From positions 1-34,270 of the forward strand of contig CAXFGY010000002.1 of assembly GCA_964002605.1 (NCBI GenBank): 34,270 nt of DNA, given 5' to 3'. The position numbers were made by a program, and so were the translations under genes. Positions within the stretch are counted from its first letter, which is position 1; each line of letters starts with the position of its first letter. Shown here in pieces: positions 4,080 through 16,069 of this stretch. The notes beneath the pieces were generated by a model, which ran no database searches, was not told the DNA's origin, and saw only the letters and a list, made by a program, of their open reading frames with translations. This DNA comes from an uncultured Candidatus Marinamargulisbacteria bacterium. GTDB taxonomy: Bacteria > Margulisbacteria > Marinamargulisbacteria > GCA-2716485 > CAXFGY01.

Positions 4080-5009
4080 ATGAAAAAACTAACTCTAAGT
4101 TCAATTGTTTACACAAATAAACATCAAACTAATATGGGAATAAAAACGTCAATAAAAAAAAAATATTCAAAACTCATAATTATTAATTTATTTATTCTAA
4201 CATCTTTTTTAAATCACAACATATATAGTATATCAGAAATTCTCATTCCAAAAAAATCAAAATCAACTATCAATGCAAATAAAAATTATCTCATTAATCC
4301 GCCAAGTATCTTGTCCCCACATATGAAAAATTATTTCATTTTAGGAACAGATTCTAATCGATATGGAAATCAAGCAAAATTTCAAGTAAGCGTAAAATTA
4401 AAATTAATCCCACAAACCTTTTATAATAGTAATCTTTATTTTTCATGGTCACAACGGACATTTTTAGACTACTTAATTACAAGCAATAAAAAATACACTT
4501 ACGACTCTGTCATTATGCCTGAAATTTTTATTCGAAAATATTTAATAAAGCATCCATTCATTAAATATGTAGGGATTGGCATTAAACATGGTTCTAATGG
4601 ACGCGGAGAAAGCTGGGGAGATCGTATTATGCTACATAGTAAAATGTATTTTTTAACTCACTTTTCATTGTTAACTGAAATATGGGGTAAAAGCTTAACA
4701 ATGAACCCAAATAAACCAACAGATGATTACTTTGGAAATGGAAAATTAATTTTAACTGGATATCATAAATACTTTAACTTATCTGCCAAAACATATTTTG
4801 GAATAACAAAAAAAATACCTCTATCAGCTGAAATAACATTAGATTTCCCTCTACATCAATCCCTTTGTTTATCACTACAATACTGGAATGGCTATGCCGA
4901 AACATTTTATACAGATAGAGACGTAAGTCCATATATAGAGCATTTTAGAAAAAGAACAAAACGCTTTAGAATTGGAATGGCAATTCCGCTTAATTTAAAT
5001 GAAAACTAA
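4080..5009 (+). CDS. pldA: Outer-membrane phospholipase A (OMPLA family); true start may be the second Met near 4133
   Basis: KFQVSVK, LYFSWSQ, PEIF, catalytic HxSNG (KHGSNGRG), YFGNG and QYWNGYAE motifs; hydrophobic signal-like stretch near the N-terminus. Confidence 0.75.
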   Translation: MKKLTLSSIVYTNKHQTNMGIKTSIKKKYSKLIIINLFILTSFLNHNIYSISEILIPKKSKSTINANKNYLINPPSILSPHMKNYFILGTDSNRYGNQAKFQVSVKLKLIPQTFYNSNLYFSWSQRTFLDYLITSNKKYTYDSVIMPEIFIRKYLIKHPFIKYVGIGIKHGSNGRGESWGDRIMLHSKMYFLTHFSLLTEIWGKSLTMNPNKPTDDYFGNGKLILTGYHKYFNLSAKTYFGITKKIPLSAEITLDFPLHQSLCLSLQYWNGYAETFYTDRDVSPYIEHFRKRTKRFRIGMAIPLNLNEN

Positions 5010-5312
5010 CTTATATTGATAGTTTATTCTTGAAATAATTAATCAACAAAAGCTATATTTACAAAAAGATACACTAATAATTTATTAACATTAATTACTA
5101 AAAAAATAATTTCACTACCATAAAAGCTCTGTCGCGAAATGCCTAATCTTCACAATTTTCACCTTCGTTATGATGCGCTGCACCACTTCCTCAGGGGATA
5201 AATTGCAAATCTTATGCCTTTGGCAACATCACATTCAATCGATTTTTTCTGTTTTGGGACAATCACATAAAGTCAAAATGAACCGAAAATTACAAATTCA
5301 AAACAAAAATCA

Positions 5313-5504
5313 CTATAGCAATAAAAAAATAGGAACCCCCACAATTAAAAAAACAGCAATTAAATAGACTAATTTATAAAAACTCAAAAAATAAAAAAAT
5401 GATCTTTTTTGAACCTGAATAGTATATTGAATACGAAACCATAACCGATCTGAAAAAAAATTATTATACTCTTGATTTAAAAAATTTTTAATAGACTTTG
5501 TCAT
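5313..5504 (-). CDS. Small membrane-anchored protein, possible anti-sigma factor
   Basis: Starts 19 nt after the ECF sigma gene; 63 aa with a C-terminal hydrophobic helix (LVYLIAVFLIVGVPIFLLL). Confidence 0.45.
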   Translation of the reverse strand: MTKSIKNFLNQEYNNFFSDRLWFRIQYTIQVQKRSFFYFLSFYKLVYLIAVFLIVGVPIFLLL

Positions 5505-5523
5505 TCGATTTAACTCAAATAAA

Positions 5524-6081
5524 TTAAGATACCTTTGTAAAAAGCTCAGTATTTACACAATTAATTCTATACTTAACTAAACTCAAGTTTATTTTTAAAA
5601 TATCAGCAATTTCATGGTAACTTTGTCCTTCAAACTCTCTTAATATCAAACAAATTCGAAACTCTGGCTTAATACATAAAAAAGTTTCATAAAACGTTTT
5701 TGTGTTATCTTCATATTCTATTTTATTAACATCAGAATTAAAAACCGAATTGTTATAAAAAAGAAAATCAATAAATTTACGAAATAAATTTTTCTTTCTA
5801 TTAAGATGCTTCAAAATATCATTAACAGCAATTTGATATGCCCAAATCGTAAATTTAATAGACTCATTAAAATAGCACGCATTATTATATAATTTAACAA
5901 AAATATCATGAGTTAAATCCTCAGTTTCTTGTTGAGAATTTATCATTTTATATGCAACATTAAAAATAAAAGATGATATCTCCTGATATATCAACTCAAA
6001 GGCCCATAATTCACCTTTACGAAATGAATTGATTATTTTATAGTCAATTATAATCTGTTTTTTTTTCATCGTCATGATCAT
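5524..6081 (-). CDS. ECF-family RNA polymerase sigma factor
   Basis: AFELIY...FNVAYKM...EDLTHDIFVKLY...FTIWAYQIAVN (region 2) and LILREFEGQSYHEIADILKINLSLVKYRI (region 4). Confidence 0.85.
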   Translation of the reverse strand: MIMTMKKKQIIIDYKIINSFRKGELWAFELIYQEISSFIFNVAYKMINSQQETEDLTHDIFVKLYNNACYFNESIKFTIWAYQIAVNDILKHLNRKKNLFRKFIDFLFYNNSVFNSDVNKIEYEDNTKTFYETFLCIKPEFRICLILREFEGQSYHEIADILKINLSLVKYRINCVNTELFTKVS

Positions 6082-6201: not shown

Positions 6202-6918
6202 TTATTCAGAAGAATGTAGCCCACATTCTTTTTGATCAGCAGATTCCCACCACCATCGTCCAGCACGTGCATCTTCACCTGATTTTACCGCCCGAGTACA
6301 CGGTTCACAACCAATACTCGGATACCCTCGATCATGAAGCACATTGTAAGGAATATTATACTTCTTAATATAAGCTAACACGTCTTGATTACTCCAATTA
6401 GCCAATGGATTAATTTTAATTTTTTGATTCGCATCATCCCATTCGATAATATCTAACATATTACGAGTAATCGACTGATCCTGACGCTGTCCTGTAATCC
6501 ATGCATCTGCAGTAGCTAATACTTTTTGTAACGGCAACACTTTTCGAATATGACAACATTCTTTTCGATTTTCAATACTATCATAAAACGAAAAATTTCC
6601 TTTTTTTGCAACCAAAGACTCCACCTGGGCTTGATCCGGATAAAGCACTTCATAGATAAATTTATATTTTTCCTGAGTCTGTGAAATCAAAGCCAGTGTC
6701 TCTTGATGAAGTCGCCCCGTTTCTAATACAAAGATACGGCAAGATTGTGATACTTTTTGAGTATATTCTAATGCCATATGAGTAATCACCTGGTCTTCGA
6801 GACTCAAACTAGACGCAATGACAATACGATCTCTAAATAATTTTAAAACATACTGAATGATATCTTGAGAAGTAAAGCCTACTAATTCATCTCTTAATTG
6901 TTGGTATTGAATATTCAT
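6202..6918 (-). CDS. cysH: Adenylyl-sulfate (APS) reductase, [4Fe-4S] type, copy A
   Basis: ECCHIRKV and SIGCEPCT (CC...CxxC cluster ligands), RAGRWWWE and catalytic ECGLH. Confidence 0.93.
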   Translation of the reverse strand: MNIQYQQLRDELVGFTSQDIIQYVLKLFRDRIVIASSLSLEDQVITHMALEYTQKVSQSCRIFVLETGRLHQETLALISQTQEKYKFIYEVLYPDQAQVESLVAKKGNFSFYDSIENRKECCHIRKVLPLQKVLATADAWITGQRQDQSITRNMLDIIEWDDANQKIKINPLANWSNQDVLAYIKKYNIPYNVLHDRGYPSIGCEPCTRAVKSGEDARAGRWWWESADQKECGLHSSE

Positions 6919-6941: not shown

Positions 6942-9284
6942 CTATATCTTCTCAATTAACACGGTCCAATATCCATCACTAGACTGAACTTGATTAACTA
7001 TTTTATGGCCTTCTAACTTCACAGAATTCGGCACATTATTAATCGGAGCACCATCATCTAACAAAATTTCAAGCTGTTGACCAGATTGCATCGTTTCAAG
7101 CACTAACTTAGTTTTAACAAAATTCATTGGACAAGCAACACCACGATAATCTTTATTAATCTTTACAAGTTCTGATATCTGATCATTAGCAGAATCATTC
7201 TCTTGACCCTTAATTCTAAACTTTAAAGAATCATCCATACTTTTGTAAAGCGCTTCCATATCAGCCGCTAATGCAATAATATCTGCTTGTAAATCAATTA
7301 ACTCATCATTTTTACCTGACTTAGCCAACATTACAATTTTTTTATACCGTTTATCTACTAAACCGGCTTCAATAAAATGCTTCATAAATAATTCCATCGC
7401 TTGATCTTCAGTCTTAGAATCTAAACCTCGAGTCACTAATAACATCCGTGACGCATGAAACACAATTTGATATAAATCATCTTTTAACGATGATGTTTCT
7501 TCTATACCTTTAACACGTTTATCAATTTCTTTTCGATCAACATTAATCATATCAAACATCCCAGCAGAACATTCTGCACTACCCATATCCTCTAACGATA
7601 ACCGTTTTTTAGCTCCAAAGTCTGTATAATATTTTTCATTCTCCTCATAACTAGGAACTTCCTTATATTTCTCACACAATGTTTTAATAACATCATTACC
7701 TTTATCTTCTAAAAAATCATGATAATTTTCATAGTCTTCTTTTTCAGCAATATATACACTCAAAAACTCCGTGACAAATGACGGAATATCATGTGCTGCA
7801 ACATCACCCAATCGCTCTGCATATTGAGTTTCTCCATGTCCCACTTTGGCGCCTGCCATAACATTATATGACGGATACATATTGCCACTATTTCGACCAA
7901 TTTTTCCAAAAAAACCCAAATCAGCCACGTGATGCATCCCACACGTATTTGGACAACCTGACATATGAAGCTTAAAGTCTGGAATTGCATCTAAATTTAA
8001 CTGCTTACTAACCAACTCTTCTCGAATCGCATCCGATAACCCACGCGGTAAACAAATACCCAACTTACACGTTTGTGCCCCTGTACAGTTAATCATTTTG
8101 CCCACCATTGCTGGTGTATGAATTAACGTATCTTCTAAACTATTTAACACATTATATAAGTTCCCAATATACTTTTCAGGAATATTACGTAACCAAACAT
8201 TTTGTCCCCGATCACATCGAATCGTATTTTCTCCCATCTGATCTAAAAAATCACAAAGCTTATACGCATCTGGGGATTTTAAATCACCTAAACGTAACAT
8301 AAGTAATACAGATGATAACCCATCTTGCTTTTGAGCATAAACATAACGCGATTTCCATTGTTCAAAAACATCCCCATGAACCGCTTCAACAGGAATATTA
8401 GGGTCTACACATTCATTTTTAAGTTCAGGTAATTCTAAATTTAATGACTCATCATATTTAATTTTGTCATATTCTTCTTCAAATAAACTAATAAATTCAT
8501 CTCTTTGCAATTTCTTCCATAAAAATTTAATCCGATTCGAATATTTACTACGACGATTTCCATGTTTATCAAACATAATTTTTAATGCTTTTGTTACATG
8601 ATACACTTGCGTATCTGGAATAAATTCCAATAATAAATTACCCACCATAGGCTTAGCACCCATTCCTCCTGCACAATATACCTTAAACCCTTTTTGACCT
8701 GCTTTTAGCGTCGCAACAAAACCCAAACATGTTGCCATTGTATACGCTGTGTCCTGATCATTATGCGAAAAATTAATTTTAAACTTTCGAGGTAAATTCC
8801 ATGAATCATCCTCAGAAATTAACCGTGTCGTCAATGCCATCGCATAAGGATCCACATCAAATAATCCATCCGGATCAATTCCTGAATTAGGAGACGTTAA
8901 AATGTTACGAATCGTATTACCCCCTCCTCCACGTGAACTTAATCCCACTTCATTTAATCCTCGAATTGCTTTCATCACATCTTCAATCAATAAATCATGA
9001 ATTTGTACTTCTTGACGGGTTGTAAAATGAACTTCATTACTCCCATAAGCTGCGCCTAATTCTGCAACTTTACGCAATTGACGAGGCGTAATTCCACCTG
9101 CCGCACAACGAATTCGTAACATATAGGTTTCTTCTTGACGTTGTTCATACAAACCATGCGCAACCCGAATTCCTTTAAACTTCACGGGATGAATATCACC
9201 TGCTACAAAACGAGCAATATCTTTTTCAAACTGATCTTGCTCGGCAAGTAACTTAGCTGGATTATCATAAAAATTAAAACTCAT
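6942..9284 (-). CDS. sir: Ferredoxin-type sulfite reductase with HEPN-like and C-terminal TusA/SirA domains, copy A (780 aa)
   Basis: HFTTRQ, LPRKFK, CTGAQTCKLG and SGCPNTCG (siroheme/4Fe-4S ligands); C-terminal DYRGVACPMNFVKTKL TusA motif. Confidence 0.9.
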   Translation of the reverse strand: MSFNFYDNPAKLLAEQDQFEKDIARFVAGDIHPVKFKGIRVAHGLYEQRQEETYMLRIRCAAGGITPRQLRKVAELGAAYGSNEVHFTTRQEVQIHDLLIEDVMKAIRGLNEVGLSSRGGGGNTIRNILTSPNSGIDPDGLFDVDPYAMALTTRLISEDDSWNLPRKFKINFSHNDQDTAYTMATCLGFVATLKAGQKGFKVYCAGGMGAKPMVGNLLLEFIPDTQVYHVTKALKIMFDKHGNRRSKYSNRIKFLWKKLQRDEFISLFEEEYDKIKYDESLNLELPELKNECVDPNIPVEAVHGDVFEQWKSRYVYAQKQDGLSSVLLMLRLGDLKSPDAYKLCDFLDQMGENTIRCDRGQNVWLRNIPEKYIGNLYNVLNSLEDTLIHTPAMVGKMINCTGAQTCKLGICLPRGLSDAIREELVSKQLNLDAIPDFKLHMSGCPNTCGMHHVADLGFFGKIGRNSGNMYPSYNVMAGAKVGHGETQYAERLGDVAAHDIPSFVTEFLSVYIAEKEDYENYHDFLEDKGNDVIKTLCEKYKEVPSYEENEKYYTDFGAKKRLSLEDMGSAECSAGMFDMINVDRKEIDKRVKGIEETSSLKDDLYQIVFHASRMLLVTRGLDSKTEDQAMELFMKHFIEAGLVDKRYKKIVMLAKSGKNDELIDLQADIIALAADMEALYKSMDDSLKFRIKGQENDSANDQISELVKINKDYRGVACPMNFVKTKLVLETMQSGQQLEILLDDGAPINNVPNSVKLEGHKIVNQVQSSDGYWTVLIEKI
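6949..9251. repeat. Direct repeat copy 1 (2303 bp), matching 11205-13507
   Basis: Offset is 4256 bp. Both boundaries were read base by base. The translations are identical over the span, including the spurious ORFs in other frames. Confidence 0.95.
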
Positions 9285-9311
9285 ATTTACTCTTGATGTA
9301 AAAATAAAATT

Positions 9312-9324
9312 AAAAACTAATATA
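9312..9324 (-). promoter_or_regulatory. 13-mer TATATTAGTTTTT (minus strand) upstream of sir copy A; candidate promoter or operator
   Basis: The same 13-mer occurs at 17682-17694, at almost the same distance from the start codon (28 vs 27 nt). Confidence 0.3.
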
Positions 9325-9440
9325 TATTTTTATACCCTAAAAAACATAAATTTAAACAAATTAAAATAAAAACTAATGTAACGACTAACTATAAATGATC
9401 ATAAATCTGAAAATAAATTAAATATTAAAAATACAAAAAA

Positions 9441-10157
9441 TTATTTTAATTGATGTAAACCACACTCTTTTTTATCAGCAGATTCCCACCACCATCGTCC
9501 CGCTCGAGCATTTTCTCCTGGTTTAATAGCACGAGTACAAGGATCACATCCAATACTAGGATACCCACGATCATGCAAAACATTATAAGGAATTTGATTA
9601 CTTTTAATATACTCCCAAACCTGTTCTATAGTCCAGTGAACCAGTGGATTAAACTTTATCTTTTTATTTTCTTCATCCCATTCAATCGTTTTTAAATTTG
9701 AACGTGTAATCGATTGAGTTTGACGTTGTCCCGTAACCCAAGCATCTGCTGTATATAATATCCGTTTTAATGGTTCTACTTTTCGAATATAACAACACAA
9801 CTTACGATTTTCAATACTTTCATAAAAAGAAAATTTGCCTTTTTTAGAAATAAAAGAATCAACAGCAGTAACATTAGGATACATGATTTCATAAGTCATC
9901 TGATATTTTTGCTGCATTTTTTCAATAACATCAATCGTTTCTTTATGAAGACAACCTGTTTCTAAAACAAAAATACGACAATGTTGAGATAATGATTGAG
10001 AAAATTGTAATGCCATGTGCGTAATCACTTGGTCTTCCAAACCCAAACTAGATGCAAAAACAACACGCTTTCCGAAAGTTGTAATTACTTTTGCTACAAC
10101 ATCTTGCGCAGTAGAATGAGTAAATTCAAATTTTAATTTTTCATATAGATACTTCAT
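9441..10157 (-). CDS. cysH: Adenylyl-sulfate (APS) reductase, [4Fe-4S] type, copy B
   Basis: LCCYIRKV, SIGCDPCT, RAGRWWWE and ECGLH; colinear 238-aa paralogue of 6202-6918. Confidence 0.93.
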   Translation of the reverse strand: MKYLYEKLKFEFTHSTAQDVVAKVITTFGKRVVFASSLGLEDQVITHMALQFSQSLSQHCRIFVLETGCLHKETIDVIEKMQQKYQMTYEIMYPNVTAVDSFISKKGKFSFYESIENRKLCCYIRKVEPLKRILYTADAWVTGQRQTQSITRSNLKTIEWDEENKKIKFNPLVHWTIEQVWEYIKSNQIPYNVLHDRGYPSIGCDPCTRAIKPGENARAGRWWWESADKKECGLHQLK

Positions 10158-10194
10158 ACTTCTATTCCAAAAAACACATTAAAATTTTTAACTA

Positions 10195-10434
10195 TTATAT
10201 CTGATAATCTAATGGTTTATGCCGTCCTATTTTCAAATGCTCCCATAATCGTTCATGAAAATAATACAAAATAAATTTACTAAAAAACTCAACAAACCCA
10301 ATTGAAAAAGCCCAACTTAATTCACCTGTAATAATATAAGCAATCAACATAGTGGTAAATGTAGCTGTTATACGCCATGAGAACGTTTTAAGCAAACTAC
10401 GCCAATACTTATCACGAGTCTCTATGTTAGACAT
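10195..10434 (-). CDS. DUF2061-family small membrane protein
   Basis: RSLLKTFSWRITAT...AYIITG...K..LYYFHERLW signature; this family is often found in cys clusters. Confidence 0.85.
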   Translation of the reverse strand: MSNIETRDKYWRSLLKTFSWRITATFTTMLIAYIITGELSWAFSIGFVEFFSKFILYYFHERLWEHLKIGRHKPLDYQI

Positions 10435-13400
10435 AAGATACTCCAGAAGATCTCTGTAATTGTTTATTAAATTCTAATTTTAATTTGGAAAAAATTGTAC
10501 CCTCCACTAAATAATTCTCCAAATCCGAATGATCAACAGAAAGCAATGATATTCTTTTTTCTAAAAAAGGCACATCAACACTAATAGATTTACTTTGAAA
10601 CGTAGATTTAAGTAAACTAATTCTATCATTAATTTTTATTTGATCTCCACAACCACCTAAAATAATTGTATGATCTTTATCCGAATAAACACCTAAAGAA
10701 CATCCAAGTTGATCCAGTGAAACTGATTTTAAAGAAAAAGAATGTTTGTCAAACCAATAATCTGCACCAGTTAGAATCGCAATATCTTCTAAAAATTCAT
10801 TATTATTACAATAATAATCCGGACATTTAATTACCAAAATCTTCATCTTATTTGCTAACTGTCTAACTACAAGCTTTGATAATATATCTTCATTAATATC
10901 CAATGTAATAATGACTAAAGGTTTAGATTCAAAGGAAACTTGATCTAAAATAGGTAAAAAATCATCAAATTGAGTAACTTTTTTATCTAAAATTAAAATA
11001 TAAGGGTCATCAAATTGTACATTCATACTCGATTTATTAGTAACCATCGATGACGAAAGATAACCAGAATCAATTTTTATATTTTTTATAGAATTAACTT
11101 CTATTTTTTTTTGTTTTCCAGAATCACTATCTTGATCAATAATTACAGACTGAGAACAATCTGCTTTTTGTCCTATTTTATTATCATTAAATTTATAACC
11201 CCCTTTCTCAATTAACACGGTCCAATATCCATCACTAGACTGAACTTGATTAACTATTTTATGGCCTTCTAACTTCACAGAATTCGGCACATTATTAATC
11301 GGAGCACCATCATCTAACAAAATTTCAAGCTGTTGACCAGATTGCATCGTTTCAAGCACTAACTTAGTTTTAACAAAATTCATTGGACAAGCAACACCAC
11401 GATAATCTTTATTAATCTTTACAAGTTCTGATATCTGATCATTAGCAGAATCATTCTCTTGACCCTTAATTCTAAACTTTAAAGAATCATCCATACTTTT
11501 GTAAAGCGCTTCCATATCAGCCGCTAATGCAATAATATCTGCTTGTAAATCAATTAACTCATCATTTTTACCTGACTTAGCCAACATTACAATTTTTTTA
11601 TACCGTTTATCTACTAAACCGGCTTCAATAAAATGCTTCATAAATAATTCCATCGCTTGATCTTCAGTCTTAGAATCTAAACCTCGAGTCACTAATAACA
11701 TCCGTGACGCATGAAACACAATTTGATATAAATCATCTTTTAACGATGATGTTTCTTCTATACCTTTAACACGTTTATCAATTTCTTTTCGATCAACATT
11801 AATCATATCAAACATCCCAGCAGAACATTCTGCACTACCCATATCCTCTAACGATAACCGTTTTTTAGCTCCAAAGTCTGTATAATATTTTTCATTCTCC
11901 TCATAACTAGGAACTTCCTTATATTTCTCACACAATGTTTTAATAACATCATTACCTTTATCTTCTAAAAAATCATGATAATTTTCATAGTCTTCTTTTT
12001 CAGCAATATATACACTCAAAAACTCCGTGACAAATGACGGAATATCATGTGCTGCAACATCACCCAATCGCTCTGCATATTGAGTTTCTCCATGTCCCAC
12101 TTTGGCGCCTGCCATAACATTATATGACGGATACATATTGCCACTATTTCGACCAATTTTTCCAAAAAAACCCAAATCAGCCACGTGATGCATCCCACAC
12201 GTATTTGGACAACCTGACATATGAAGCTTAAAGTCTGGAATTGCATCTAAATTTAACTGCTTACTAACCAACTCTTCTCGAATCGCATCCGATAACCCAC
12301 GCGGTAAACAAATACCCAACTTACACGTTTGTGCCCCTGTACAGTTAATCATTTTGCCCACCATTGCTGGTGTATGAATTAACGTATCTTCTAAACTATT
12401 TAACACATTATATAAGTTCCCAATATACTTTTCAGGAATATTACGTAACCAAACATTTTGTCCCCGATCACATCGAATCGTATTTTCTCCCATCTGATCT
12501 AAAAAATCACAAAGCTTATACGCATCTGGGGATTTTAAATCACCTAAACGTAACATAAGTAATACAGATGATAACCCATCTTGCTTTTGAGCATAAACAT
12601 AACGCGATTTCCATTGTTCAAAAACATCCCCATGAACCGCTTCAACAGGAATATTAGGGTCTACACATTCATTTTTAAGTTCAGGTAATTCTAAATTTAA
12701 TGACTCATCATATTTAATTTTGTCATATTCTTCTTCAAATAAACTAATAAATTCATCTCTTTGCAATTTCTTCCATAAAAATTTAATCCGATTCGAATAT
12801 TTACTACGACGATTTCCATGTTTATCAAACATAATTTTTAATGCTTTTGTTACATGATACACTTGCGTATCTGGAATAAATTCCAATAATAAATTACCCA
12901 CCATAGGCTTAGCACCCATTCCTCCTGCACAATATACCTTAAACCCTTTTTGACCTGCTTTTAGCGTCGCAACAAAACCCAAACATGTTGCCATTGTATA
13001 CGCTGTGTCCTGATCATTATGCGAAAAATTAATTTTAAACTTTCGAGGTAAATTCCATGAATCATCCTCAGAAATTAACCGTGTCGTCAATGCCATCGCA
13101 TAAGGATCCACATCAAATAATCCATCCGGATCAATTCCTGAATTAGGAGACGTTAAAATGTTACGAATCGTATTACCCCCTCCTCCACGTGAACTTAATC
13201 CCACTTCATTTAATCCTCGAATTGCTTTCATCACATCTTCAATCAATAAATCATGAATTTGTACTTCTTGACGGGTTGTAAAATGAACTTCATTACTCCC
13301 ATAAGCTGCGCCTAATTCTGCAACTTTACGCAATTGACGAGGCGTAATTCCACCTGCCGCACAACGAATTCGTAACATATAGGTTTCTTCTTGACGTTGT

Positions 13401-13540
13401 TCATACAAACCATGCGCAACCCGAATTCCTTTAAACTTCACGGGATGAATATCACCTGCTACAAAACGAGCAATATCTTTTTCAAACTGATCTTGCTCGG
13501 CAAGTAATGTATTTGAATTTTCATAAAATCTAACACTCAT
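10427..13540 (-). CDS. sir: Sulfite reductase-HEPN-TusA fused to a C-terminal GroEL apical-domain homologue, copy B (1037 aa)
   Basis: Residues 12-779 are identical to copy A. The ~258-aa tail aligns by eye with the GroEL apical domain (DSGYLSS, PYILILDKKV, KPLVII, LEDIAILTG, LDQLG, KDHTIILGG, LEKRISLL). Confidence 0.88.
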   Translation of the reverse strand: MSVRFYENSNTLLAEQDQFEKDIARFVAGDIHPVKFKGIRVAHGLYEQRQEETYMLRIRCAAGGITPRQLRKVAELGAAYGSNEVHFTTRQEVQIHDLLIEDVMKAIRGLNEVGLSSRGGGGNTIRNILTSPNSGIDPDGLFDVDPYAMALTTRLISEDDSWNLPRKFKINFSHNDQDTAYTMATCLGFVATLKAGQKGFKVYCAGGMGAKPMVGNLLLEFIPDTQVYHVTKALKIMFDKHGNRRSKYSNRIKFLWKKLQRDEFISLFEEEYDKIKYDESLNLELPELKNECVDPNIPVEAVHGDVFEQWKSRYVYAQKQDGLSSVLLMLRLGDLKSPDAYKLCDFLDQMGENTIRCDRGQNVWLRNIPEKYIGNLYNVLNSLEDTLIHTPAMVGKMINCTGAQTCKLGICLPRGLSDAIREELVSKQLNLDAIPDFKLHMSGCPNTCGMHHVADLGFFGKIGRNSGNMYPSYNVMAGAKVGHGETQYAERLGDVAAHDIPSFVTEFLSVYIAEKEDYENYHDFLEDKGNDVIKTLCEKYKEVPSYEENEKYYTDFGAKKRLSLEDMGSAECSAGMFDMINVDRKEIDKRVKGIEETSSLKDDLYQIVFHASRMLLVTRGLDSKTEDQAMELFMKHFIEAGLVDKRYKKIVMLAKSGKNDELIDLQADIIALAADMEALYKSMDDSLKFRIKGQENDSANDQISELVKINKDYRGVACPMNFVKTKLVLETMQSGQQLEILLDDGAPINNVPNSVKLEGHKIVNQVQSSDGYWTVLIEKGGYKFNDNKIGQKADCSQSVIIDQDSDSGKQKKIEVNSIKNIKIDSGYLSSSMVTNKSSMNVQFDDPYILILDKKVTQFDDFLPILDQVSFESKPLVIITLDINEDILSKLVVRQLANKMKILVIKCPDYYCNNNEFLEDIAILTGADYWFDKHSFSLKSVSLDQLGCSLGVYSDKDHTIILGGCGDQIKINDRISLLKSTFQSKSISVDVPFLEKRISLLSVDHSDLENYLVEGTIFSKLKLEFNKQLQRSSGVSYV
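11205..13507. repeat. Direct repeat copy 2 (2303 bp), matching 6949-9251
   Basis: See copy 1; identity breaks at 11204/6948 and at 13508/9252. Confidence 0.95.
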
Positions 13541-13558
13541 CGTTCTATCATTCTCTCC

Positions 13559-14002
13559 TCATTGAATTTTTAATGTTACTGTTGCAATTTCAACTTCATT
13601 ATCATTCGGTTTCACCACGTTAAATCCATTGATTTCAGGTTGATCACCTTTTAAACTTAAAATAATATATACTGGATTTGGATCATTAAATAAACGAATG
13701 TCTTCTTCTGAAAGCCGTGCCGGCGTCTCTGGATGACTATGATATACAGATAACAGTTCTAATCCATTTTGACGCGCTTGTTTAACGACTTGAAATTGCT
13801 CTTTAGGATCAAAACTAAAATGATCTGAACGTGCATCTACATTCGTCATGGGGTAAAATTTAGAAATCTCTCCTGCAATGCCTGCTAAATAACCACAAGC
13901 CTCATTAGGCAATTCAGATTGAGCATGACTAACAAGTTCATCATAAATATCTTGAGGAATAATTAATTGTCGTAATTGTTCTTTCACATCTTGTTTTACC
14001 AT
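13559..14002 (-). CDS. JAB/MPN+ (M67) metallopeptidase, HcyD/Mec-like sulfur-carrier processing protease
   Basis: PNEACGYL and YHSHPETPARLSEED, an intact JAMM motif E...HxH-x7-S-x2-D. Confidence 0.9.
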   Translation of the reverse strand: MVKQDVKEQLRQLIIPQDIYDELVSHAQSELPNEACGYLAGIAGEISKFYPMTNVDARSDHFSFDPKEQFQVVKQARQNGLELLSVYHSHPETPARLSEEDIRLFNDPNPVYIILSLKGDQPEINGFNVVKPNDNEVEIATVTLKIQ

Positions 14003-14003
14003 A

Positions 14004-14819
14004 TCACCCTTCCTTTGAGATATTTAAATCACATACAACCTGTTCTCCATCTAACAATTCAGTAATTGTAGGATTATCTCCGCAAACAGGACAATTTTCA
14101 CGTCTTTTAACTGATACCGTACGGTATTTCATACCCAATGCGTCAAACATTAACAATCGATTTTCTAATAAATCGCCAATTCCTAAAAAATATTTTAATG
14201 CTTCTGCCGCTTGAATCGTCCCTAACATACCTGCCACTGCACCCAAAACACCCGCTTGTGAACATGTTGGAACTAAATCAGCAGGAGGCGGTCCATTAAA
14301 AATACACCGATAACATGCATTACCAGGCGTATAAGTAAACGTCTGACCCTCAAACCGTAAAATACCCCCATGAGAATACGGTTTTTTTGCCATCACACAT
14401 GCATCATTAATCAAAAATTTAGTCGAAAAATTATCCGTACCATCAATAATAAAATCATATTCTGTAATTAACTGATTCGCATTGGATGCCATAAATAACT
14501 CTTTATATACACTAACCTTCACATCTGGATTAATCGCATTAATTTTTTCTTGAGCTGAAACCACTTTTTCACGACCAATATCAGGTGTAAAATGAATAAC
14601 TTGACGTTGTAAATTAGTAATATCTACTACATCAGCATCGACTAATCCAATATGTCCCACTCCTGCAGCTCCTAAATACAACGCAATCGGAGCACCTAAA
14701 CCCCCAGCACCAATAATCAAAACACGACTATTTAGTAATTTTTCTTGTCCCTCTCCACCCACATTTTGCAATAAAATATGACGACTATATCGTTCAATTT
14801 GTTCCTCTGTTAAGTTCAT
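14004..14819 (-). CDS. ThiF/MoeB-family sulfur-carrier adenylyltransferase (HcyF-like)
   Basis: RYSRH, GAGGLG, NLQRQ, DGTDNF, CYRC and CPVC Zn motifs. Confidence 0.92.
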   Translation of the reverse strand: MNLTEEQIERYSRHILLQNVGGEGQEKLLNSRVLIIGAGGLGAPIALYLGAAGVGHIGLVDADVVDITNLQRQVIHFTPDIGREKVVSAQEKINAINPDVKVSVYKELFMASNANQLITEYDFIIDGTDNFSTKFLINDACVMAKKPYSHGGILRFEGQTFTYTPGNACYRCIFNGPPPADLVPTCSQAGVLGAVAGMLGTIQAAEALKYFLGIGDLLENRLLMFDALGMKYRTVSVKRRENCPVCGDNPTITELLDGEQVVCDLNISKEG

Positions 14820-16069
14820 TTTAAATACTCCAAAGCTTGTTTAAAATCAGCAATAATATCATCTTCATGTTCTAATCCAATAGATAAACGAATTAAATCA
14901 GGATATACTCCAGCCTCTTCTTTTTGTTTATCTGTTAAATTACGATAAATTGTTTCTCCCGGATGAATTGCCAATGTCCGTGCATCTCCCAAATTCACCG
15001 AGTTATCAATTAACTTAAGTTGATTAATAAATAAATATGCATTTTCTTTGGATCCCAATCGAATGGTTAACATCCCACCACATCCCTTAGGAAATTGAGT
15101 ACTAACAAGATCCGCTTGTAAATGATCTAATAAACCTGGATAAGTCACCCTAACAACTTTCGAATGTGATTTAAAAAATTGCGCCACTTTCAATGCTGTT
15201 TGACAATGGCGATCCATACGAATCGCTAATGTTTCAAGCGCTGCAATCGTTAAAAAAGCATTCAAAGGCGTCATCGCACAACCCGAATTTGCACGTACTT
15301 TTTTAACAGCAGCAATAAACGCATTTTTACCAAACTTTTTCATCTCCAACAACGCTTTAGAACAATGGTCAGACCAACTAAAAACACCCAAGTCTGTAAT
15401 TACGCCTCCTACTGCAGAGTTACCGCCACATAAATATTTAGTTGTTGCATTAATCACAACATGTGCCCCTAACGATTTAATATCACATAAATAAGAAGGA
15501 ACAAATGTAGTATCCACTACTAAAGGAATATTTACTTTAGCCGCAATACTCGAAACAGCTCTAATATCAACAACATCTAATTTAGGATTGCCAATTACTT
15601 CAACAAATATCAACCGTGTATTCTCTTGAATCGCTGCTTCATACGCTTCAAAATCAACTGTGTCTACAAATGTCGTTTCAATACCACTATTTTTAATCAA
15701 GCCATTAATTAAATAATATGTCGATCCAAATAAGCTTTTTGATACTACAATATGGTCCCCTGAACTTGCCAAAGCAAAAATCATACTTGTAATCGCAGCC
15801 ATACCCGAAGACACAGCAACTGTCCCCAAACCATTATGAAGCACATTAATCCGTGACTCTAAGTCAGCAACAGTTGGATTTGCGACCCGAGAATAATAAA
15901 ACCCATATTCATGACCTTTGAATATATTTTCTAAACCCTCTGCTGTTTCAGATCGATACGCAGTCGATTGATGAATCGGGGGTTTAGTCGCACCTGTTTC
16001 AGAATCAGGTGTAATCCCTGCATGAATCGCTTGCGTCTCAAATTTCCAATTAGAAGTATAATCGGTCAT
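14816..16069 (-). CDS. metY: O-acetylhomoserine sulfhydrylase (PLP-dependent, Cys/Met metabolism family)
   Basis: FETQAIHAG, YSRVANPT, SSGMAAI, ATTKYLCG (PLP Lys), NLGDARTLAIHP and RLSIGLE. Confidence 0.85.
   Translation of the reverse strand: MTDYTSNWKFETQAIHAGITPDSETGATKPPIHQSTAYRSETAEGLENIFKGHEYGFYYSRVANPTVADLESRINVLHNGLGTVAVSSGMAAITSMIFALASSGDHIVVSKSLFGSTYYLINGLIKNSGIETTFVDTVDFEAYEAAIQENTRLIFVEVIGNPKLDVVDIRAVSSIAAKVNIPLVVDTTFVPSYLCDIKSLGAHVVINATTKYLCGGNSAVGGVITDLGVFSWSDHCSKALLEMKKFGKNAFIAAVKKVRANSGCAMTPLNAFLTIAALETLAIRMDRHCQTALKVAQFFKSHSKVVRVTYPGLLDHLQADLVSTQFPKGCGGMLTIRLGSKENAYLFINQLKLIDNSVNLGDARTLAIHPGETIYRNLTDKQKEEAGVYPDLIRLSIGLEHEDDIIADFKQALEYLK

Follow-up and report, generated by a model that had tools for sequence, protein, structure and literature searches.

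A GroEL-derived apical domain fused in frame to one of two sulfite reductase isoforms in an uncultured Candidatus Marinamargulisbacteria bacterium

Two sulfite reductase genes and a GroEL-related tail

The window analysed here is a whole contig (C2; 34,270 nucleotides [nt]) from the draft genome of an uncultured Candidatus Marinamargulisbacteria bacterium. It carries two assimilatory sulfite reductase genes, sir-A and sir-B, and sir-B continues in frame past the end point of sir-A into a segment related to the chaperonin GroEL. The draft genome is fragmented (1.36 Mb in 174 contigs, 77% complete), and the window has a GC content of ~31%. The sir-B product is a single polypeptide consisting of a ferredoxin-type assimilatory sulfite reductase (Sir), a TusA domain, a flexible linker of ~40 residues, and a GroEL-type apical domain with a short helical end. 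We refer to K779 and the 258 residues that follow it (window 10427–11206) as the tail, with K779 as tail residue 1; from tail residue 42 onwards, E. coli GroEL numbering is the tail number plus 150 (PDB rows 1kid and 4aaq). The features are as follows.

10427–13540, minus strand: sir-B, 1037 amino acids, sulfite reductase + TusA + GroEL-derived tail; an identical open reading frame is present in metagenome contig L014
11861–13540, minus strand: Sir catalytic part (sir-B residues 1 to ~560), NIR_SIR_ferr + NIR_SIR, with C-x5-C and C-x3-C clusters
11204–11407, minus strand: TusA domain (sir-B residues 712–779; Pfam PF01206, E 4e-20), the last section in common with sir-A
11087–11203, minus strand: linker, a degenerate GroEL intermediate-domain segment 1 (tail residues 2–40), from alignment to the genome's own GroEL
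10541–11086, minus strand: GroEL-type apical domain (tail 41–222, E. coli GroEL 191–372), from gapless alignments and the model fold
10430–10540, minus strand: C-terminal helices, a degenerate intermediate-domain segment 2 (tail 223–259), followed by the stop codon at 10427–10429
10195–10434, minus strand: DUF2061 small membrane-protein gene, whose ATG overlaps the stop of the sir-B tail by 8 nt
9441–10157, minus strand: phosphoadenosine phosphosulfate (PAPS) reductase 2, from open reading frame and domain search
6942–9284, minus strand: sir-A, 780 amino acids, Sir + TusA, no tail
6202–6918, minus strand: PAPS reductase 1, 62% amino acid identity to PAPS reductase 2
6949–9251, no strand: repeat copy A, perfect over 2303 nt, from self-comparison of the window
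11205–13507, no strand: repeat copy B, perfect over 2303 nt, ending one base ahead of the point where sir-B and sir-A diverge

Over the 2303 nt of the repeat the two sir genes are 100% identical; their differences are confined to the first ~11 codons and to the part past K779, where sir-A ends with K-I-stop and sir-B instead adds its 258 residues. The tail is thus present on one of two otherwise identical isoforms, as an earlier note on this DNA, made from the sequence alone, had stated. Pfam identifies NIR_SIR, NIR_SIR_ferr and TusA in both products; the Sir domains (PF01077, E 1.2e-39; PF03460, E 4.5e-25) are each found in two stretches, and TusA (PF01206; 71.8 bits against a cut-off of 28.6) ends at residue 779. 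The translation includes the motifs CTGAQTC (C-x5-C) and CPNTC (C-x3-C), and this pattern is that of the cysteines of a 4Fe-4S/siroheme centre. Among NCBIfam equivalog-level models that could tell a sulfite from a nitrite reductase, none reached its cut-off (523–732 bits), and the best of those below it are the NirA family (217 bits), ferredoxin-nitrite reductase (196) and sir (85). We assign the enzymes as sulfite rather than nitrite reductases because of the operon, with its PAPS reductase, CysD and CysN, and because of the names given to homologues by their sources.

No family matches the tail in Pfam at E≤0.1, PF00118 included, which we attribute to the insensitivity of this broad model and not to an absence of homology. 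A phmmer search of PDB sequences with the tail returned 64 distinct sequences at E≤10, the best 60 of which are all of the Cpn60 type. The best of these (E 6.8e-34) aligns tail 29–222 with chain residues 177–370 without a gap, and E. coli GroEL chains (E 2.6e-26) align at 175–372 with tail 23–222. NCBIfam GroEL models match with E values of 1e-44 to 1e-41, and only between profile positions 176 and 372 (tail 27–223); the corresponding scores (117–153 bits) fall short of the whole-protein cut-offs of 352–1041 bits. Homology to the genome's own GroEL begins five residues past the junction (NDNKIGQ in the tail, NDSEIGQ in GroEL); the alignment is interrupted by two small gaps, both within its first 35 residues, and is gapless thereafter. 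The equatorial ATPase and ring-forming domain is absent from sir-B, as Sir-TusA lies upstream of the homologous segment and a stop codon and DUF2061 lie downstream. By these alignments the captured piece is GroEL ~153–405: the whole apical domain, flanked by a portion of the first intermediate segment and by the second one, with no equatorial domain. The tail is not itself a GroEL, both failing the whole-protein cut-offs and lacking the equatorial domain, and is structurally equivalent to the laboratory minichaperone. The earlier note had recognized an apical-domain homologue without an equatorial ATPase at 10538–11145 (tail residues ~21–223), and both the identification, on which PDB phmmer, NCBIfam and AlphaFold2/Foldseek agree, and the position are right. 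Its view that the piece covers almost exactly the apical domain is correct as to the missing equatorial domain but leaves out the degenerate intermediate-domain flanks.

We modelled the tail with AlphaFold2 on a 55-row alignment of GroEL sequences, giving a mean predicted local distance difference test (pLDDT) score of 80.6 and a predicted template modelling (pTM) score of 0.78. Confidence is highest in tail 41–220 (pLDDT mostly 86–97); tail 1–36 falls below 55 (32–54 over the linker range) and is therefore read as a linker, and tail 223–259 is modelled as helical with pLDDT of 52–69. A Foldseek comparison of the model with the PDB, at a threshold of E≤0.001, gives 316 matches, and the model superposes on the isolated apical domains 1la1, 1kid, 3osx and 10yy with a root-mean-square deviation (rmsd) of 1.3–1.5 Å over 182–184 columns (target TM 0.91–0.94), the structural match that the note had called for. 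We read this as compatibility with the apical fold rather than as independent proof of it. In the ESM Atlas, once clusters of PF00118 are set aside, the top score is 0.90 (a cluster of 58 members, 248 amino acids), followed by two viral clusters at 0.86, and we treat these as leads only.

The junction and the duplicated sir genes

The in-frame junction is present in DNA assembled separately from the draft genome. Sequencing run X1 contains 0.96 of the sampled words from window 10100–11500, and one of its Logan contigs (record 3, 3271 nt) is identical to window 10237–13507 with 0 differences, bridging the junction (11204|11205) with flanks of 968 and 2303 letters. A second contig of this run (record 1) connects the 5′ end of sir-A with sequence lying upstream of PAPS reductase 2, and X1 therefore contains each of the two entries into the repeat. 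The depths of these contigs are 10.4 (tail and repeat) and 4.87 and 6.61 (the two entries), each a single figure per contig that we have not used as a copy number. When metagenome contigs were scanned with the tail, a single locus was recovered, L014 (5052 nt). It is identical to window 10304–14937 (4634 nt) and encodes ThiF, JAB, the same 1037-residue open reading frame and DUF2061, as well as the beginning of PAPS reductase 2. All 34 differences between L014 and the window lie within 9886–10303 (418 nt; L014 4635–5029), in DUF2061 and PAPS reductase 2, so L014 is a separate assembly and represents another haplotype in that part. The break in identity at 9886–10303 could be a strain recombination boundary, or L014 could be a strain-chimeric contig. 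Position 11204, where the note had asked for spanning sequence, is bridged by both the X1 contig and L014.

A run of five G residues (11199–11203) lies at the junction, where the gain or loss of a single G would place a stop codon within 2–12 codons; the five G are common to all three assemblies. There is no in-frame ATG, GTG or TTG in the tail before residue 54, which is already within the apical domain, and a whole apical domain can therefore be made only as part of the fusion. Three other runs (X2, X4 and X6) have listed pieces in the repeat and DUF2061 (X4 at 100% identity; X2 record 8 matching 10088–10345 at 100%). None of these pieces covers 10476–11063 of the tail, and as depths are only 2–5 and patchy this is no evidence of absence. 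Two of them (X2 record 9 and X6 record 28) stop at 11205 or close to it, perhaps representing sir-A-type ends from related strains. A promoter scan of 9200–11500 gave 19 promoter-like sites, compared with 14.1 ± 3.7 in shuffled sequences. There is also a weak terminator-like hairpin (11164–11145, minus strand) in the linker-coding part, 40–60 nt past the end of TusA (1 compared with 0.4 ± 0.8 in shuffles). As these signals are not above chance, there is no case for a separate transcript of the tail. We conclude that the fusion is genuine DNA and not an assembler artefact.

Although the sir copies are perfectly matched over 2303 nt, their 5′ ends and the adjacent PAPS reductase genes are only 73–74% identical in nucleotide sequence. 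The PAPS reductases have diverged to a synonymous divergence (dS) of ~1.06 and a nonsynonymous divergence (dN) of 0.26, indicating that the duplication is old and that the sir interiors were homogenised afterwards. The identity of the copies fits gene conversion between old paralogues or, in part, collapse of the repeat during assembly; given the divergence of the flanks, the sir interior has been homogenised whatever the assembler contributed. We considered dating the insertion of the GroEL fragment from the PAPS reductase dS, but dropped this as nothing links the insertion to the duplication.

Three other features of the window were noted. Genes for an extracytoplasmic function (ECF)-type sigma factor (5524–6081, minus strand) and a phospholipase A1-like protein (4080–5009, plus strand) lie between PAPS reductase 1 and cysD, and this segment (4080–6081) looks inserted, since a PAPS reductase gene adjoins cysD in relatives. 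A 1227-residue open reading frame (21431–25114, minus strand) has a very low GC content at third codon positions (GC3, 0.146) and lies in a stretch of strongly negative AT skew.

Gene order, origin and retention of the GroEL fragment

A search with Sir-A across 21 genomes (20 relatives and the window's own) found a match in 16. In eleven relatives there is a single full-length Sir, its open frame being 773–801 amino acids long, and only the window's genome has two Sir copies and a 1043-residue frame. One relative (G008) has its Sir gene in four pieces over contigs C21 and C36, which may reflect a broken gene or an assembly problem. The loci of six relatives share a conserved order of Rrf2, PALP, an O-acetylhomoserine sulfhydrylase-type enzyme (Cys_Met_Meta_PP), ThiF, JAB, Sir, DUF2061, PAPS reductase, CysD and CysN, an operon that we take to resemble a thiocarboxylate-type methionine pathway. 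In five of these six relatives DUF2061 directly follows a Sir gene of ~780 codons that is itself preceded by JAB, and the Sir stop codon lies 1–3 codons past the point where sir-B runs on. This gene order identifies sir-B, DUF2061 and PAPS reductase 2 as the syntenic unit; sir-A and PAPS reductase 1 form the second unit. Set against this arrangement, a GroEL fragment of ~770 nt appears to have been inserted exactly between Sir and DUF2061.

The closest match to the tail among 41 genomes (40 relatives and its own; six had no match, and these are 55–85% complete) is the GroEL of its own genome (contig C62, locus L001), with 143.2 bits and 41% identity. The GroELs of the 34 relatives with a match score no higher than 134.2 bits, with 31–42% identity. 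A wider search of 1.84 billion protein representatives gave 6553 matches at E≤1e-3; among the best 150 none exceeds 40% identity and those matching in a single stretch reach at most 126 bits, the top rows scoring high through two matched stretches each. Three long 'GroEL' matches (P0001, P0002 and P0006) were considered as fusions and rejected, as they are GroELs with internal repeated blocks that are most likely assembly duplications. The genome's own groEL is the lone canonical copy and adjoins groES; it (C62, L001 1–1200) ends with the contig after residue 400, its C-terminal part being unassembled. In a free tree the tail has a branch of 4.23 changes per column, compared with 0.13 for its own GroEL, and falls in no starred set. 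A tree in which the tail is forced to be sister to its own GroEL lies 13.6 log-likelihood (lnL) units above the free quick tree (p-AU 0.68), and the two have lineage-specific residues in common, such as M at position 204. We infer the lineage's own groEL to be the most likely donor of the fragment.

The pattern of divergence in the tail is not that of a decaying sequence. We simulated decay of the own groEL segment by substitutions only, to 41% or 36% identity, in four settings of 1000 replicates; none of the 1000 stayed free of stop codons in any setting, with a mean of 11–13 stops. No indel is present in the apical alignment of the tail with GroEL chains, and GC contents of 0.377, 0.273 and 0.131 at the three codon positions show that codon periodicity has been kept. 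Identities are retained in 16 of 19 columns that are ≥90% conserved among GroELs, in 27 of 59 at 70–90%, in 15 of 46 at 50–70%, and in 15 of 59 below 50% (p 8.5e-5 by Fisher test, for identity to its own GroEL). They are also unevenly placed, with 75 of 183 in the apical domain, 9 of 33 in the segment 1 remnant and 4 of 28 in the segment 2 remnant. Neutral decay of the tail is rejected, and it is the apical domain alone that has been preserved non-neutrally, the intermediate-domain flanks having degenerated. The earlier description of the tail as in frame, stop-free and strongly diverged is borne out, and the pattern of divergence supports its suggestion of retention, as kept under selection.

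A review (PMC3268035) names Y199, S201, Y203, F204, L234, L237, L259 and V263 as substrate-binding residues of the apical domain. Two of these positions differ in the tail: Y203 is replaced by S, and F204 is M, as it is in the genome's own GroEL. Counting V264 as a ninth residue of this hydrophobic substrate/GroES-binding surface (helices H and I and the 199–204 segment), the tail keeps seven of nine (Y199, S201, L234, L237, L259, V263 and V264), and we regard retention of the groove above expectation as suggestive only.

Possible roles of the tethered apical domain

The isolated apical domain of GroEL has ATP-independent minichaperone activity in vitro. The tail resembles the E. coli minichaperone (GroEL 191–376; 1kid, 1la1) in its fold (rmsd 1.4 Å over 183–184 columns, target TM 0.91), in lacking an equatorial ATPase or ring, and in keeping most of the substrate-binding residues; its sequence identity to solved apical domains is 28–33%. 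However, the minichaperone is a laboratory fragment whereas the tail is a natural gene product predicted from sequence, with degenerate intermediate-domain flanks and a covalent tie to an enzyme. The genome's own GroEL (C62) differs from the tail in being a full chaperonin, and the tail lacks residues 1–152 and all those past ~405 and has a branch ~30 times longer. A parallel in design is provided by engineered GroEL-apical-domain (GrAD) carriers, in which the domain is linker-fused to a target to keep it soluble (PMC6803692). These carriers are man-made, with a thermophile's domain and arbitrary targets, whereas the sir-B fusion is natural and C-terminal on Sir-TusA.

Residues 1–779 of sir-B are an ordinary member of the Sir-TusA reductases of ~780 amino acids (the closest named being from Candidatus Marinamargulisbacteria), with the same operon. 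There are 3720 homologues at E≤1e-3, including one of 780 amino acids that is 92% identical (P0242), and unlike sir-B none of the 120 best is longer than 862 amino acids. Two of these proteins (P0246 and P0247; 861 and 862 amino acids) have a second TusA appended to Sir-TusA, and another (P0350; 860 amino acids) has a ThiS-family domain. Additions of sulfur-relay modules seem to concentrate at the C-terminus of Sir.

The search for the same module in other proteins, which the note had suggested, found no Sir fusion in the 40 relatives but did find GroEL modules without an equatorial domain in TIR_2-TPR proteins. Three of these (P0097, P0100 and P0113; 831–1106 amino acids) have N-terminal TIR_2 and TPR domains and two or three GroEL modules, which match a relative's GroEL at 155–403, 158–411, 157–363 and 160–400, the same cut-out as in sir-B. 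They differ from sir-B in being unrelated proteins with tandem modules and no metabolic enzyme, and because the tail scores only 58–80 bits against these modules, compared with 143 against its own GroEL, the captures are independent. The papers searched hold no description of TIR-TPR GroEL modules, and PMC7159879 contains none of the terms chaperonin, Hsp60, Cpn60 or apical. In two further proteins (P0099 and P0161) a caspase (Peptidase_C14) is fused to one or two nearly complete GroELs. The TIR-TPR proteins suggest that defence-like proteins employ the GroEL intermediate and apical unit for recognition. The unit without the equatorial domain is a recurrent natural module that is not unique to sir-B, and its presence on a metabolic enzyme is new as far as our searches reach. 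The earlier note knew of no described Sir-GroEL fusion, and in the papers searched we found none that joins sulfite reductase, GroEL and the apical domain, nor a natural apical-domain fusion or anything on Sir-TusA. The main text of a Marinamargulisbacteria paper (PMC6349859) does not mention GroEL or chaperon, and its supplements might list the gene.

We propose that the sir-B tail has been retained as a peptide-binding module that acts without ATP and is tethered to one of the two Sir isoforms, and place the probability of this at about 0.5. An internal groEL fragment (codons ~153–405) would have entered between sir and the downstream DUF2061 gene and replaced the sir stop codon; later, its two intermediate-domain flanks would have decayed to linker and tail, while the apical domain would have stayed folded and preserved most of the hydrophobic groove of helices H and I. 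Such a module can neither form rings nor hydrolyse ATP, and its action would therefore be ATP-independent, like that of the minichaperone in vitro, on exposed hydrophobic or extended peptide segments. Tethering would provide this binder at a high local concentration beside Sir-TusA. If so, we slightly favour as its client Sir-B itself, either during folding or in cofactor-free intermediates, with the tail acting as a cis holdase; almost as probable a client is a different product of the sulfur-relay operon or a peptide of the mobile-loop type.

Several observations weigh against this proposal. The 40 relatives searched, none of which belongs to the same family, yielded no fused form, and the carrier is a single population, so that there can be no comparative dN/dS and there is no sign of conservation across species. 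There is no Sir-GroEL fusion among the 120 best Sir homologues (lengths 651–862), and a scan of genome contigs with the tail gave 36 pattern matches, none of which was confirmed. The GC3 of the tail (0.131) is the lowest of the genes measured, its composition is rich in FYMINK residues, as under relaxed constraint, and its branch is very long (4.2 changes per column compared with 0.13). Nearly invariant GroEL columns are altered (G192 to N, N265 to R, and G282 to Y), the loop after P279 is rewritten, and the enrichment of groove residues is marginal (seven kept compared with 4.3 expected from column conservation, P 0.055), with Y203 lost. The tail-less sir-A renders the tail dispensable in principle, and the perfect identity of the two sir copies could in part be assembler repeat collapse. 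The AlphaFold2 model leaned on a GroEL alignment, making the fold match partly circular, and the fusion is known from DNA alone, with no RNA run among the sequencing runs listed for the region.

Many of these points would also be expected if the GroEL piece were a tolerated passenger, with the fusion real and translated but no binding role for the piece, which is the main alternative and one that we consider less likely than the proposal. The frame would then be kept open so that ribosomes reach the overlapping DUF2061 start (by translational coupling or avoidance of polarity), and the fold would be kept only because it spares Sir-B the harm of misfolding. The 8-nt overlap of the DUF2061 ATG with the tail stop, with GGAG upstream, fits this, as do the single known population, the redundant sir-A, the lowest GC3 and long branch, the marginal groove retention and the changes at Y203, N265 and G192. 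However, selection for solubility alone should remove exposed hydrophobic residues, and yet L234, L237, L259, V263 and V264 are all kept. Decay has also been domain-specific, with the flanks gone and the apical domain kept, and deletion of the 770-nt insert, which would restore the Sir-DUF2061 arrangement of the relatives, is not seen in either of the two haplotypes. Even as a passenger, the tail would still represent a clean recent domain capture in a conserved operon, together with gene conversion between paralogues.

A second alternative, which we regard as improbable, is that the tail is a specific docking module and not a holdase, its groove having been retuned for one partner through N265 to R, Y203 to S and the rewritten 280–286 loop. 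The partner brought to Sir-TusA could, for example, be bound through a mobile-loop-like segment and be GroES or a sulfur-relay protein of the operon (the ThiF-type E1, the JAB peptidase, O-acetylhomoserine sulfhydrylase or ferredoxin). The operon is a sulfur-carrier type assimilation cluster, the altered positions cluster beside the groove, and the TIR-TPR proteins, with equatorial-less GroEL modules of the same boundaries, suggest use as a recognition domain. Against this, what the groove retains are generic substrate-binding residues, the data fit a holdase equally, and the partners are candidates only; a complex prediction of tail 37–225 with the genome's own GroES returned 'no answer' (score 0.00), which is evidence neither way. 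Least probable by a wide margin is an artefact, in which chimerism during assembly or amplification, or an error in counting the G5 run, has joined two genes, with Sir-B stopping and the GroEL piece separate or dead: the G5 run exactly at the junction (where ±1 G stops the frame in 2–12 codons), the fragmented draft (174 contigs, 77% complete) and the difficulty of assembling a perfect 2.3-kb repeat would favour it, but two further assemblies are letter-identical at the junction, one of them a different haplotype, a whole domain needs the fusion since no in-frame start precedes tail residue 54, and a dead fragment should have acquired stop codons, as it did in all 1000 simulations.

A fuller version of our proposal, and a tentative one, is that sir-B encodes a selectively maintained intramolecular minichaperone, cut from the lineage's own GroEL and welded to a siroheme/Fe-S enzyme as a holdase or docking arm, and that the equatorial-less unit, found in the TIR-TPR proteins as well, is a portable domain recruited repeatedly by bacteria for binding unfolded proteins or peptides. 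If peptide binding by the tail is correct, a natural enzyme with an apical domain would show that evolution has reached the same solution as laboratory minichaperones and solubility carriers. Sir-A and Sir-B, with the tail as their sole difference, would offer a simple two-isoform system for a tethered ATP-free chaperone domain on a cofactor-rich enzyme, in the setting of a small, streamlined genome. The TIR-TPR proteins found alongside suggest a wider, undescribed use of the equatorial-less GroEL unit in recognition.

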